DNA of 64,000 bases, from the sequence record MN850633.1. One strand, given 5' to 3'. The DNA comes from Escherichia phage allfine. Below, piece after piece: positions 4,475 to 47,196 of the stretch (positions within the stretch are counted from its first letter, which is position 1; each line of letters starts with the position of its first letter). The position numbers and the translations under genes are program-made. The notes beneath the pieces were generated by a model. The model saw only the letters and a program-made list of their open reading frames with translations. It was not told where the DNA came from and ran no database searches.

Positions 4475-4834
4475 ATGAAACGTGAAAACATTATCCACTC
4501 TGAAAACTTCGCATTAGGCTTTTATGGTGTACCTACTCACCTTGAAAAGTATTATGGTGTAAAGATTCTTTCCAATCTCATTACGGCTTACAAAGATGGT
4601 AAGATTAAGCATACTGAGAAGAAACGTGTCATGGGTTATATGGCTGTAGGTTCAGCAATCTCGAACATTAAGTTGGAAACAACTAGCAGTCAGATTGTAA
4701 AAGACCACTTCATCAAAGAGCTTTACCAAAATCTTGATGGTGTAGATGTTCAGGCTGTTTGGCTGGATGTTGATGGTCATAACTACACAAGTTTTGTTTT
4801 CAAAAACGATGACATTAAGTGCTTGTTCCCATAA
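4475..4834 (+). CDS. hypothetical protein (119 aa)
   Basis: ORF in track. Confidence 0.45.
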   Translation: MKRENIIHSENFALGFYGVPTHLEKYYGVKILSNLITAYKDGKIKHTEKKRVMGYMAVGSAISNIKLETTSSQIVKDHFIKELYQNLDGVDVQAVWLDVDGHNYTSFVFKNDDIKCLFP

Positions 4835-4847
4835 TAGGTGATTAACT

Positions 4848-5363
4848 ATGATTGATATCTTCTTACAAGATGCTCATGCAGATTTCCTTAAAGAGATGCT
4901 TAAAAAGTTTATGGCTTCACAGTATGAGAATGAAGCATCTTTTAAAATAGTTACATGTGGCGATGAAGCTGGTTTTGTTGAGATTGAGCATGAAGGTACT
5001 GGAAAGACTGTTTGTAAGTTACCTGATAGTATGTTCTCTAAAACGTTCTTAACAAAGACTAGTATAAATGTTAAGCTTGTACCACAGATTGAAACATACT
5101 CTGGTACAGATTACCCTAAAGGGTTTAAGTCACTGATGAAGTACTTCTTAGATGACTTTGTGGGTAATCTTCTGAGGGAGGTAAAAGAAAGTCGTACAGT
5201 GTTAACTGTAGAGAACATGGGAGGAACTATAAAGGTTACTTCTGACTGTTTTGTTATGAGCCTCTTCGACTTCGTTCCTAAGAACTTTGATGGTATTCTG
5301 GATGAAGAAGATGACTGTGTAGACTTTATATTGGTTCTTGAGCCAGTTTTTGAGGTTAAATAG
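4848..5363 (+). CDS. hypothetical protein (171 aa)
   Basis: ORF in track. Confidence 0.45.
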   Translation: MIDIFLQDAHADFLKEMLKKFMASQYENEASFKIVTCGDEAGFVEIEHEGTGKTVCKLPDSMFSKTFLTKTSINVKLVPQIETYSGTDYPKGFKSLMKYFLDDFVGNLLREVKESRTVLTVENMGGTIKVTSDCFVMSLFDFVPKNFDGILDEEDDCVDFILVLEPVFEVK

Positions 5364-5624
5364 ATGAAAATTGAACACTGCTATGAGTCTGATGGAACAC
5401 CTATCCGATGCCCACATTGTGGATGTACAGACTTACAAGGTGAAGTTCATGTGATTGTTAATGGTCATATAGCTGAAGAGAGTACAACATGTGTTGGTTG
5501 TGGTGAGCATCTATCATTCTGGGCTTATGGTTCATACCAACCTACACCACACTTAATCTACCATAGCAATAAAGCTGTGAAGAATGTTATCAACTGGTTT
5601 ATTAAGAAAGGATTTACAAAATGA
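5364..5624 (+). CDS. zinc-ribbon protein
   Basis: CPHCGC ... CVGCGEH, two CxxC pairs. Confidence 0.45.
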   Translation: MKIEHCYESDGTPIRCPHCGCTDLQGEVHVIVNGHIAEESTTCVGCGEHLSFWAYGSYQPTPHLIYHSNKAVKNVINWFIKKGFTK

Positions 5625-44132: not shown

Positions 44133-44684
44133 ATGCAAGTTTTTAAAGATGTAAAAGAGGTTGAAGGTAACTACCTAGTACTTGATTGGAATGATATTCG
44201 GGAAGCACTCTCCGAAGAAAATCTTGACTGGTTTGAACAAATTATCTTTGCAGTACGGCATAACAGAGAAGTTGAAAATGGTAAAGAGCCATTAGAAGGA
44301 ATCTTTGTAGAGAAGTCTTATCAGTTCTATGAAGACACTTTACAGAAAGTTAAAATGTACTTCAGACAGAAGAACCGTAAAGTGGTCACTATGGTGTCTC
44401 TTGGTGGACAGAGTATGTCTATTATGGAAGATATCAACCCTAAGAGGCCGAGTAAAGGTGTCTGTATAAAAATCACAGGCCATGAAGAGTATATCTCAGC
44501 AAGTGATTTTAGTGTATTCTGTAATGGTTCTGCTGTATTTAATGGGTTTCATTATGATATCCGAGTGTACCCAATTAAGGGAGATGATATCATGATGCAG
44601 GTATTCGATAACAACAATGGGTTCACTCATTTTTACCAGACAACTAAGTCATCCTTGAAGACAGTTTTAGAAAGCCTGATTTAA
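44133..44684 (+). CDS. hypothetical protein (183 aa)
   Basis: ORF in track. Confidence 0.45.
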   Translation: MQVFKDVKEVEGNYLVLDWNDIREALSEENLDWFEQIIFAVRHNREVENGKEPLEGIFVEKSYQFYEDTLQKVKMYFRQKNRKVVTMVSLGGQSMSIMEDINPKRPSKGVCIKITGHEEYISASDFSVFCNGSAVFNGFHYDIRVYPIKGDDIMMQVFDNNNGFTHFYQTTKSSLKTVLESLI

Positions 44685-44699
44685 AATATCTTAAGAGCC

Positions 44700-44726
44700 T
44701 CCTTAATTGGGGGTTTTTTAATTTTT
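44700..44726 (+). terminator. intrinsic terminator closing the plus-strand block
   Basis: GC-rich stem then TTTTTTAATTTTTT. Confidence 0.45.
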
Positions 44727-44769
44727 TATAAAATTTTATCGGTTGTCCCAACCTCTGGGTCACCATCAT

Positions 44770-45890
44770 ATGTGAATAAAGTATCTATCCTTTTTAACAA
44801 CCTTCTTAATCTTACTCTCTATATAGTTATATAGTACTATATAGTATCTTAGTATCTATCTAGTGGTCTTAATAGCCCCTCTGTATAACCCTTCTAACAA
44901 GCCCTCTAACAAGCCATCTAAACACTCTTCTAACAAGCCTTCTAAACAACCTATACAATCATCTTAACCATCTCTCTATATCCTCTTAGAAGCTCCTATA
45001 CACCTCTTAATCTCTAGGTTAGCTATGTTACCCTCTATAGGTGTTCACTAGGTACTACTAAGCCTCTATATAGACTGTTTTAACAAACTTAACAGGAATA
45101 TCTTCACAGACCTTATCTCACAAGGTCTAACACGGTACTAACAAGGTATCTTATAAGCCTGTTATTACCTGTATTTTTAAAAGACTGTCTAGGTAATTAT
45201 TCAGAATCTTAAAATTTTTATAAAATAGGACTATCAAGTCATTTTTTAGGGTCTTTGAAGGAACTGAAAAATATCTGATTAGGATGTATATCTGCTTGGT
45301 AGCCCTTAACAGCTCCCTTACAAGTACTTTGCAAAATTTTAAAATATCCTTAACAATTTCTTAACAACTCTCTCAAGCTCTTAACAAATCTTCAAAGGTC
45401 TTAACAGATTCTTAACAGAACTAACAAGGATGTAACAGTTTCTTAACAGTTGATACATAGTCTTTACAGAGTCTTAACAGATGACTAACAAGAGTTAATT
45501 AGTTAATTTTAAAGAGTTATTTTGTTAAGATAATTAACAAGTTCCTAACAAGTGTTTAATCTTTTTAACAAGCTATTAACATGGTCACTATCTCTTGGTC
45601 TATAGTTCCCTTTCCTTCTTAGTGATTCTTTAAACATACCTCTTAAAAGCTCTCTATAGCTCTTCATAGGCTCTTTTAAGTCTCTTCCTAGTAGTTACAC
45701 CCCAACTGTACAGACACCTCTTTATAGGGCTTTACAGGAGCTTTTAAGGCTATGTCAAAGACTCTTACAAGGCTTTTACGTGGTCTTAACAGAGATTTAA
45801 CAAGGGGCTAACAAGTTGCTAACAAGTGCCTTAAAAGCATAACTATGTAGGGATTGTTAAGAAATTGTTAAGAAAATGTTAAGGGGGCTA
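44770..45890. repeat. array of more than 30 TTAACAR / CTAACAAG heptamer motifs, densest at 45349-45590, partly phased at 10-11 bp
   Basis: Direct reading: CTTAACAATTT CTTAACAACTC ... CTTAACAGATT CTTAACAGAA CTAACAAGGA ...; inverted copies TTGTTAAG at 45851-45880; no ORF of 60 aa or more. Confidence 0.6.
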
Positions 45891-45900
45891 GCATTTACGT

Positions 45901-45950
45901 AACTTTTAAACTACTTCAAAATAACTTTTAAACTACTTCAAAATAACTTT
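45901..45950. repeat. 22 bp tandem direct repeat, 2.3 copies
   Basis: AACTTTTAAACTACTTCAAAAT twice, then partial third copy. Confidence 0.6.
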
Positions 45951-46274
45951 ATAGCCCCCTTCTTAGATATTCACAAGATAGCTAACGAGATAATAAAGCT
46001 TACACCCTTATAAGATTCTTTTAAGTCTCTGGGAAGCTTTATAAAGGGCTTTTTAGGGTGAGTTAATGCAATCCCTTAAGTTAGGTTGATAAGGCTGTTA
46101 TAGAGCTTTATAGAGCGTTTAAACGGTTGCCCTTCCCTTTCGGGTTATGGGCTTATATTTAAGTTGATTTGATAAAAGGCTATAGAGTAGACTATAGAGT
46201 TATTGCTTTTTAAGGTCTGATAAGATTCTGGAAAGGAAAGGGAAAGGGTTGTATAAGGGATTTGATAAGACGTA

Positions 46275-46299
46275 AAAAAGCCCCTATGGGAAAGGGGCT
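46275..46299 (-). terminator. intrinsic terminator at end of minus-strand small-gene array
   Basis: AGCCCCT-TTCCCAT-AGGGGCT followed by TTTTTT on minus strand. Confidence 0.55.
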
Positions 46300-46337
46300 G
46301 TAAAGGTATCTGGGGCTATTTAGCCCCGTTGCGGCGT

Positions 46338-46586
46338 TTAGTTAGTGCCTTTTTTGTCGTAGTACAGGGAGACAATTTTTTCACCCCAGTAGTGGTATGT
46401 ATAACCCTCTTTGAGAACTTCCTGTTTTGTTTCTTTCCAGAATTCATCAGAGGGGTTGTAGTCACTGATGGTCTGGCTGATAAGGCCTTTCACCATTTCA
46501 AAGGTGTTATCAGTACCTACAAGGTCAAATTTAACGTCCAGAGAGTAGAAGCCGAATTCGTTAACAGTTGCGCGGATAGTAGCCAT
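46338..46586 (-). CDS. hypothetical small protein (82 aa)
   Basis: ORF preceded by family-A cassette and GGAG RBS. Confidence 0.5.
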   Translation of the reverse strand: MATIRATVNEFGFYSLDVKFDLVGTDNTFEMVKGLISQTISDYNPSDEFWKETKQEVLKEGYTYHYWGEKIVSLYYDKKGTN

Positions 46587-46665: not shown

Positions 46666-47196
46666 TTACAGACTTTTGATTGTCTCGTCAATATCTTTTT
46701 CAATATCTTTTAAAGTTTTTTCTAAGTTCTTGATATTGAAAGATAAGCCCTCTCCTAGTGTCTTAGAGTAACCGCTAGGACGTGAGTTATATAGTTCGAT
46801 TTCTTCCACTTCGAAGAGACTAACCAACTCACCGCTTACACTGTAAGCCATTGAAACAGTATTTACAGGGGCTTTATAAAACTTGTTTAAGGACTTGATA
46901 GAACGTTCATAAGCCATTTTATAACCGTTTAAAAGGTTTTTAACGTGGTTACGAACGTTTTTGCACTCATCTAAGTAAATCTCTAAGAATAACGGTAATA
47001 ATTCCGCTACAGCTTGCATAAAGTGAGAGACTACAACAGTAGAAACATTACGGCGATGAATGTAATAAGCCCCGTTTTCTGACTTAGTGATGGTTGCAAA
47101 GTGTACCCCATTGCAGCGAAATTCGTATGTGTCTTTTACAGGTTTTGACATTACAGCATTTGAACGAATGAAGTTGATAGCTTTAAACTTGTTCAT
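46666..47196 (-). CDS. hypothetical protein (176 aa)
   Basis: ORF preceded by family-A cassette. Confidence 0.5.
   Translation of the reverse strand: MNKFKAINFIRSNAVMSKPVKDTYEFRCNGVHFATITKSENGAYYIHRRNVSTVVVSHFMQAVAELLPLFLEIYLDECKNVRNHVKNLLNGYKMAYERSIKSLNKFYKAPVNTVSMAYSVSGELVSLFEVEEIELYNSRPSGYSKTLGEGLSFNIKNLEKTLKDIEKDIDETIKSL

Follow-up and report, generated by a model that had tools for sequence, protein, structure and literature searches.

Helically phased heptamers in the inferred terminal repeat of a Felix O1-like phage and their probable role in DNA packaging

Background

What purpose is served by more than a kilobase of non-coding phage DNA in which one short motif recurs many times over, mostly on the same strand? 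The question is raised by a locus in Escherichia phage allfine (sequence record MN850633.1), of which a stretch of 64,000 nucleotides, here called the window, was analysed. A preliminary description made from the sequence alone had drawn attention to positions 44770-45950 as being saturated with TTAACAR heptamers, and had listed a packaging site, a replication origin and a partition site among the possible functions. In this paper, we report that these positions belong to a gap between convergent genes which, judging from homology, is almost certainly the concatemer junction of the phage, with a direct terminal repeat (DTR) of 591 bp at 45298-45888. The packaging site is the suggestion that found support, as the array lies inside and around a DTR that has been mapped in a close relative. 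For the complete statement, namely that this is the concatemer junction of a Felixounavirus and that its phased array serves packaging, we estimate a probability of about 60%. The preliminary description did not recognise the region as a physical end of the genome.

Felix O1-like phages are widely used in Salmonella and E. coli typing, biocontrol and therapy, and their genomes are usually deposited with an arbitrary opening point. That these phages have a DTR is already known; pulsed-field gel electrophoresis led the authors of the original Felix O1 paper to infer short terminal repeats, and they opened the genome at rIIA. The sources that deal with Felix O1-like DTRs provide the repeat length, sequence or coordinates only, and the heptamer array within the repeat is apparently undescribed: no account of heptamer arrays, helical phasing, inverted boundary copies or cross-genus conservation was found in the searched literature, the coverage of which leaves out many subscription journals.

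Identification of the terminal repeat

The feature is larger than was first described, extending over an ORF-free gap of 1.65 kb (44685-46337) that is bordered on the left by an open reading frame (ORF) of 183 aa on the plus strand (44133-44684) and on the right by an ORF of 82 aa on the minus strand (46338-46586). The earlier observation of convergent units without coding capacity between them was confirmed, the longest ORF inside the gap being 41 aa and terminators facing each other from the two sides. Instead of a single array of 1.2 kb, the gap is made up of distinct parts, namely the DTR with a flank on either side, although the phased array itself is real; this array and the inverted TTGTTAAG copies are inside the DTR and a 22-bp tandem repeat is just outside it.

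The phage in the window belongs to the Felix O1-like myoviruses of the genus Felixounavirus, and its relatives are all members of the Ounavirinae. The gap is matched by 256 phage records, mostly at 80-95% identity, and a megablast search with 45298-45888 returned 254 records, 246 of which had at least 80% query coverage. In one relative, UAB_Phi87, a DTR of 608 bp was mapped by combining Bal31 digestion for limited times with SpeI restriction and run-off sequencing (Bardina et al. 2016, PMC4837284). The published sequence of this repeat (Fig. S1, PMC4837284) is the reverse complement of approximately 45296-45880 of the window, with ends that agree to within 2-8 bp.

The ends of deposited genomes point to the same interval. 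At least six GenBank records, among them MW481326, PP886228, PP886229, OR498728 and PP461118, contain or annotate DTRs of 580-592 bp with the same boundaries. In MW481326, bases 1-581 are annotated from PhageTerm as a 'short direct terminal repeat', and PP886228 and PP886229, which were opened at PhageTerm-determined ends and start and finish inside the gap, have exact end duplications of 581 and 580 bp, respectively, with boundaries as in the window. The records of ZX4221, ECP2307, SPJ41 and NBSal004 have the segment at the record end plus a second copy elsewhere. D4, E9, ZX4221 and Pr103Blw begin at one same nucleotide, GCCCCCTTAACATTTTCTTAACAA / GCCCCCTTAACA, which is the reverse complement from 45888, and ECP2307 begins exactly at GGTAGCCCTTAACA, corresponding to position 45298. 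The likeness to the Felix O1-like DTRs lies in the homologous sequence (90-95% identity), in both boundary sequences and in the location between the same pair of convergent genes. The inferred repeat starts with GGTAGCCCTTAACAG and ends with AAAATGTTAAGGGGGC, and the window holds a single copy of it, as expected of a collapsed or circularised assembly. The ends of IMG/VR contigs were also considered as independent evidence and were left unused as too weak, one contig stopping about 15 bp before the boundary, within the inverted copies.

A headful pac site was rejected as an explanation because the ends in the relatives are fixed and identical and a small terminase subunit (TerS) was not recognised beside the large subunit (TerL).

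Heptamer counts and helical phasing

More than 30 copies of CTTAACA(G/A) or CTAACAAG had been claimed for 44770-45950. Exact matches sum to 22, with CTTAACA(G/A) occurring 10 times on the plus strand and three times on the minus strand and CTAACAAG nine times on the plus strand and never on the minus strand. The claimed number is reached when the core shared by both patterns, TAACA, is counted, which gives 33 copies in total. With 27 of these on the plus strand and 6 on the minus strand, the observation that most copies have one orientation was also borne out. The corresponding chance expectation, obtained by first-order Markov resampling with the region's own dinucleotides, is 4.7 ± 2.2 with a maximum of 14.

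The enrichment is local. Over the whole gap there are 34 TAACA cores (27 plus, 7 minus), and the remaining 62 kb of the window has 108 on the plus strand and 101 on the minus strand. A comparison of motif frequency with a control, as had been proposed in the preliminary description, gave 69 copies of TTAACAR across the window against 40.8 ± 6.1 expected and 13 copies of CTAACAAG against 3.7 ± 1.7, and this surplus is confined to the gap region. The richest 300-bp windows hold 16, 8 and 7 cores in comparison with a mean of 1.0 elsewhere, and no second TAACA cluster was found anywhere else in the 64-kb window. The DTR alone accounts for 23 cores (19 plus, 4 minus).

The main phased array (45351-45490, plus strand) consists of about 14 units, spaced on average about 10.4 bp apart, of which 10 are exact (C)TTAACAR or CTAACAAG copies and four are the degenerate units CTCTCAAG, CTTCAAAG, GATACATAG and CTTTACAG. 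Copy-to-copy spacings in 45351-45486 are 11, 20, 20, 11, 9, 11, 11, 31 and 11 bp, and the degenerate copies fill the 20- and 31-bp gaps. The recurrence every 10-11 bp on one face of the helix, noted at the outset, was upheld: the best period for 14 sites (45351-45577) is 10.3 bp with a vector length (R) of 0.905, which was equalled by none of 5000 random placements. All 19 plus-strand copies, spread over 513 bp, are still coherent at 10.4 bp (R = 0.73; 4 of 5000 random placements). Self-similarity at lags of 10-12 and 20-22 bp was present throughout the DTR and both flanks and a coding control lacked such a signal.

Four further parts of the DTR follow the main array. A second sub-array on the plus strand (45523-45581) has an inverted copy at 45523 and direct copies at 45535, 45546, 45566 and 45577. 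The middle of the DTR (45601-45780, plus strand) has no exact TAACA and is composed of degenerate 10-11-bp units, CTCTTAAAAG, CTCTATAG, CTTTTAAG and CTTTACAG; its autocorrelation is 0.41 at lag 11 and 0.38 at lag 10, values never attained by whole-DTR shuffles, none of which exceeded 0.351, and TRF reported a period-10 array at 45635-45675. Near the right end, four direct copies, TTAACAG, TTAACAAG, CTAACAAG and CTAACAAG, stand exactly 11 bp apart (45787-45824, plus strand). Finally, the minus-strand segment 45854-45888 comprises three inverted copies, TTGTTAAG, TTGTTAAG and ATGTTAAG, followed by GGGGGC at the right boundary. Three inverted TTGTTAAG copies had been reported; three inverted copies with 11-bp spacing do exist at 45855-45881, the third of which reads ATGTTAAG. 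A CTAACAAG array lies, like the 22-bp tandem repeat, just outside the DTR, and CTAACAAG copies are also present within 45351-45490 and 45787-45824.

The segment 45854-45888 pairs as an inverted repeat with 45339-45367 over 29 nt at 90% complementarity, with a second match of 20 nt at 95%. As this inverted repeat connects the right end of the DTR with its left part, both virion ends would read G..CCCTTAACA inward. The extreme ends of the DTR, GGTAGCCCTTAACA and GCCCCCTTAACA, are likewise alike going inward.

Conservation among relatives

The window was aligned with 24 relatives, including members of Mooglevirus (Michonne, Sf13) and Suspvirus (mistaenkt), to give 25 sequences. Within the DTR columns, TAACA cores are 97.7% conserved across the 24 relatives compared to 86.3% for the rest, and most single copies are intact in 92-100% of sequences. 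By sub-array, the core is intact in 80-100% of the 25 sequences for sites in 45351-45490, and in 92-100% of the relatives for 45523-45581 and 60-100% for 45787-45824. Both DTR boundaries are invariant in the 25 sequences, as is the block GATGTATATCTGCTT (45283-45297) that abuts the DTR, which is identical in all 25, drawn from three genera; an Erwinia phage shows GTATATCTACTT at the equivalent place.

The gap has 77-80% nucleotide identity to Mooglevirus and Suspvirus, whereas the flanking genes have 62-68% at the nucleotide level and 48-57% at the protein level. A junction more conserved than its adjoining genes (44133-44684 and 46338-46586) is unusual for intergenic DNA.

The phasing at about 10.4 bp is likewise found in Michonne, Sf13, mistaenkt and one Erwinia phage. 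The motif, its strand bias and a phase of 10.3-10.4 bp are kept in four genera, including Erwinia phages in which the remaining gap is unalignable. The boundary and array could still be matched in Erwinia phages (Kolesnikvirus), one Cronobacter phage and Pectobacterium phages, and the Erwinia phages retain TCTTAACA arrays. In vEam_PM_6, the junction has 18 TTAACA copies on one strand in a 10.4-bp phase; the ends of this record, the only Erwinia record checked in this respect, share a 412-bp repeat and the record begins with GCCACTTTTACATTTCGTTAACAAC after an adapter remnant. Going by its sequence, this start clearly follows the same boundary design. Positions 1-9 of the vEam_PM_6 record (L035 / PP079182.1) are TTCCGATCT, the 3' end of an Illumina adapter and a small contamination of the record; the adapter directly before the end repeat hints that reads started at a physical DNA end.

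The conservation check that had been called for gave a positive outcome, with the motif, the phasing and both boundary sequences kept across four Ounavirinae genera. Purifying selection acts on the DNA itself, on the heptamers as well as on their helical phase. Copy number does vary among the relatives, from 2 to 5 for the inverted TGTTAAGAAAA units and from 1 to 8 for the right-flank units of the TTTACGTAACTTT type.

Proposed role in packaging

The identity and boundaries of the DTR, the motif enrichment, the phasing and the conservation, all documented above or in the cited papers, are the basis on which we propose a function. The array most likely serves as a platform to which protein binds when ends are recognised and cut in packaging. 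What we infer is the protein binding as such, the bending of the DNA and an involvement in recognising or cutting the ends. In this proposal, each junction of a replicating concatemer would contain 45298-45888 a single time and packaged DNA would carry it at both of its ends; the convergent terminators on both sides insulate the junction from transcription. The DTR and its flanks are assembled from 10-12-bp units with the core (C)TTAACAR / CTAACAAG, those in the DTR sharing one helix face. A protein of the packaging machinery, either a yet-unnamed recognition subunit or TerL itself, may bind the phased copies cooperatively and head to tail. The bound complex would bend or wrap the DNA, mark the junction and position the terminase nuclease, which would then cut at two invariant boundaries, GCTT^GGTAGCCC and GGGGGC^TAGC, 591 bp apart. 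The inverted copies at the boundary may offer equal recognition geometry at both cuts. Regeneration of the repeat after cutting would leave each packaged genome with a copy at both ends.

Proteins that bind one face of the DNA in head-to-tail order, such as winged-helix response regulators and ParR on parC, typically target direct repeats spaced one helical turn apart. The parC site of plasmid R1 consists of ten 11-bp direct repeats that are cooperatively bound by ParR, and the resulting one-face, curved nucleoprotein complex on repeats of about one helical turn could serve as a structural model for how the array is read. Unlike the present array, parC functions in partition, lies next to parM/parR and overlaps a promoter; here, par genes were not found and the phage is lytic.

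Recognition arrays for small terminases are known from the SPP1 pacL/pacR boxes, the P1 pac hexamer clusters and the lambda cosB R sites. These resemble the present locus in having short repeated boxes that flank the cut site, with phasing and bending thought to let an oligomer wrap the DNA. They differ in that the phages concerned produce headful or cohesive ends instead of exact DTRs, the boxes number 3-7 and the TerS gene adjoins that of TerL, whereas none was found here.

The closest parallel in layout was seen in T7. We counted 13 copies of CCTAAAG in the T7 sequence, on one strand only, inside and beside the 160-bp terminal repeat; the short-repeat arrays of the T7 and T3 junctions were reportedly described by Dunn and Studier in 1983. 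Both phages combine a short exact DTR with a one-strand heptamer within the repeat and in both flanks (here, TAACA at 27 plus and 7 minus). However, the T7 motif is unrelated to CTTAACA, its spacing is mostly 13 bp and not the helical repeat, and the inverted set at the boundary is absent. In addition, the T7 junction has the phage promoters phiOL and phiOR on its flanks and the present one is closed by terminators; T7 is a member of the Autographiviridae with a known small terminase, gp18, and the present phage belongs to the Ounavirinae and has no recognisable TerS. We therefore regard the T7 junction as an analogue and not a homologue.

A more specific form of the packaging proposal is tentative and, in our estimate, has well under an even chance of being correct. 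The phased array may be the recognition platform of a terminase system without a conventional small subunit, in which TerL or an unrecognised Ounavirinae core protein would read about 20 same-face heptamers, wrap about 150-500 bp and set both cuts via the inverted copies. If true, such a platform would be a so far uncharacterised means by which a myovirus lineage with hosts in many Enterobacterales sets exact DTR ends.

Several points weigh against a role in packaging or against the identification on which it is built. To our knowledge, the function of the T7 heptamers has never been firmly established since T7 was sequenced, so the analogy supports the location and not the mechanism. A binding protein for the array was not found among the candidates examined, and a small terminase subunit was not recognisable near TerL (28959-31116, minus strand) in PHROG and Pfam searches. 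The 66-aa ORF upstream of TerL (30582-30782, minus strand) was rejected as a DNA binder, being acidic and helical with only near-identical homologues, and the structure model of a conserved 176-aa protein near the genome end had no PDB match at E ≤ 0.001. The 12-bp array of the left flank varies freely among the relatives, hence some copies are unconstrained. We infer the duplication of 45298-45888 in the virions of this phage from homology. Lastly, the paper on phage SEP1 (MW311372) reports heterogeneous termini and headful pac packaging from PhageTerm alone (PMC13431587). SEP1 carries the same junction sequence internally at 4664-5547, and the headful claim made for it is at variance with the DTR mapped by nuclease digestion in UAB_Phi87 and with those present in several further records.

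Alternative explanations

The heptamers may instead form an architectural or end-protection platform, on which a nucleoid protein of the phage or host coats the terminal repeat after ejection and could shield it from exonucleases, control DNA entry or assist the annealing and recombination of repeats into concatemers. We consider this unlikely, yet several of the features speak for it: phased copies directly adjoin one virion end and come to within about 50 bp of the other, the ends are alike going inward, and a phasing of 10.4 bp that is maintained for more than 500 bp is suited to a continuous one-face filament or strong curvature. The 11-bp-spaced units in 45351-45490 read TAACAR-N4-TTA, one position off the IHF consensus WATCAR-N4-TTR; a host architectural protein could thus contribute. 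Neither two-step ejection nor an end-binding protein was found in the searched literature on Felix O1-like phages, and the sequence provides no direct evidence of such a protein. End protection is compatible with the packaging role, from which it would be weakly distinguishable by sequence.

A replication origin with iterons was one of the functions first suggested. An origin or priming site located in the terminal repeat, with the heptamers as initiator-binding iterons and the AT-rich stretch at about 45170-45260 as the unwinding element, appears quite improbable. The one-orientation repeats do adjoin this AT-rich and highly conserved segment and the GC content of the gap (34%) is below that of the window (39%). 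The promoters phiOL and phiOR, annotated beside the terminal repeat in the T7 record, act as secondary origins in T7. Nevertheless, the GC-skew analysis that had been recommended for detecting an origin gave no independent signal, the cumulative skew shifting only with the coding strand and hence with the direction of transcription, and searches of the flanking genes revealed no initiator, helicase-loader or Rep-like domain. Classical iterons measure 17-22 bp and are spaced about two helical turns apart, whereas the units here have 7-8-bp cores at 10-12 bp; an iteron-type origin was rejected on this repeat size and on the lack of an initiator domain in the flanking ORFs. Furthermore, the copies, inverted set included, reach and define both DTR boundaries, which an origin would not need.

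It is very improbable that the arrays are a by-product of slippage or tandem duplication in non-coding DNA in which only the length of the terminal repeat matters. The variable copy numbers of the sub-arrays, i.e. the 12-bp left-flank units, the inverted TGTTAAGAAAA units and the TTTACGTAACTTT units, would agree with such an origin, but it is at odds with the better conservation of the DTR cores relative to their spacers, with the persistence of motif, strand bias and phase in four genera and with a gap that is more conserved than its adjoining genes.

Least probable of all is a role as promoter or operator elements for the flanking genes, a promoter role having been judged unlikely already in the preliminary description. 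TTAACA does resemble a -35 hexamer, and a few promoter-like matches make use of it. Such matches, however, number 7 against 5.2 ± 2.3 expected, and both neighbouring units run toward the gap and end in terminators, so that nothing downstream is left to drive in a gap without an ORF or an Rfam RNA (no match at E ≤ 1 on either strand). A partition centromere of the parC or parS kind, also among the initial suggestions, is implausible in a lytic lineage, and par-like families were not found in the neighbouring ORFs.

Significance of the junction

The interval 45298-45888 and its invariant boundaries provide a simple rule to orient and complete Felix O1-like genomes, and the location of the DTR pinpoints the cis-acting packaging region that is needed for engineering or for transducing vectors. 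The same knowledge yields a precisely delimited probe with which to look for the recognition protein that the packaging machinery still lacks. More generally, the lineage offers an independent, strongly conserved and helically phased case in which one-strand heptamer arrays at concatemer junctions may be tested.

Terminase and candidate binding proteins

TerL, which acts in trans and is the expected cutter at the DTR boundaries, is encoded at 28959-30575 on the minus strand (PHROG 979, E = 7.8e-234; Pfam Terminase_6N and Terminase_6C). The TerL of Felix O1-like phages clusters in a DTR clade according to Bardina et al. (PMC4837284). In the Pharokka-annotated relative D4, no small terminase is listed for bases 1-45000, the half that holds TerL and the structural genes. 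The PhageMaP study of Bas63 offers no data on the region considered here. The Bas63 record is opened at the 66-aa ORF upstream of TerL.

The 183-aa flanking protein is unlikely to be a conserved reader of the array, as it occurs only in Felixounavirus, Suspvirus and Mooglevirus, and the Erwinia phages, in which the array is retained, lack it. The 82-aa flanking protein was also rejected, having no similarity to its Erwinia counterpart. The 176-aa protein (46666-47196, minus strand), encoded two genes from the genome end, is kept near that end in all genera, with 32% identity between Felixounavirus and Erwinia Kolesnikvirus, and its AlphaFold model of moderate confidence (pLDDT 75.6) predicts a beta-meander and long helices. 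For the homologues of this protein, PF26821 is listed in a precomputed database table; a local Pfam search gave nothing.

Other features of the gap

The left plus-strand unit is closed by a predicted intrinsic terminator at 44693-44718, a 10-pair stem followed by a T run 3' of the 183-aa ORF, and the homologous position carries a terminator annotation in KhF1 and Michonne. Its counterpart on the right, which closes the minus-strand unit 3' of the 82-aa ORF, lies at 46279-46299 and is kept in all aligned genera.

The left flank begins with a cluster of CTATATAG palindromes at 44818-44864, a tandem TATATAGTA array; these palindromes are kept in Mooglevirus and Suspvirus. A tandem array on the plus strand, outside the DTR, follows at 44890-44945 with 4.7 copies of the 12-bp unit CCTTCTAACAAG. 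It has the lowest conservation of the gap (0.57), and its TAACA cores at 44895 and 44907 are intact in just 12-16% of the relatives. The unique left flank at 45035-45297 (plus strand) is conserved at 0.91-0.96 in 50-bp windows and includes TAACA copies at 45081, 45090, 45128 and 45139 as well as the AT-rich stretch.

To the right of the DTR, a variable flank on the plus strand (45889-45955, conservation 0.69-0.72) consists of a conserved TAGCATTTACGTAACTTT and a 22-bp tandem repeat, TAACTTTTAAACTACTTCAAAA, at 45900-45950; the earlier report of this repeat was accurate, and it amounts to 2.3 copies at 100% identity. The unique right flank at 45956-46278, with CTATAGAG, TTATAAG and CTTTTAAG units, is conserved at 0.89-0.92, is alignable over three genera and shows peaks in its autocorrelation at lags 11 and 22.

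A second motif family, CTCTATA(G) / CTATAGAG (also CTCTATA / TATAG), is partly palindromic and occurs in both flanks and in the DTR middle, at 44818-44864, 45066-45075, 45650-45660, 46098-46121 and 46170-46190; it too is kept in Mooglevirus and Suspvirus. CTCTATA is found five times on the plus strand and four times on the minus strand of the gap, compared to two and one, respectively, in the other 62 kb.

Two minor observations were made among the relatives. P0043, a homologue of the 44133-44684 product with 92% identity, carries the NCBI label Methanobrevibacter gottschalkii and is encoded on a contig of 88,424 bp, the size of a Felixounavirus genome; the archaeal assembly was probably contaminated with phage DNA. 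A hairpin-forming insert of about 24-27 bp, in the forms TTGATTCGGTAGAATCTACCTCAT and ATAGGATTCGATAGATTCCTATCTCAT, is present or absent at differing junction sites, namely at about 45282/45283 (relatives L019 and L029), at about 45955 (L010, L015 and L028) and near 44700 (Michonne and mistaenkt), with the window itself free of it, and looks like a miniature mobile palindromic element.

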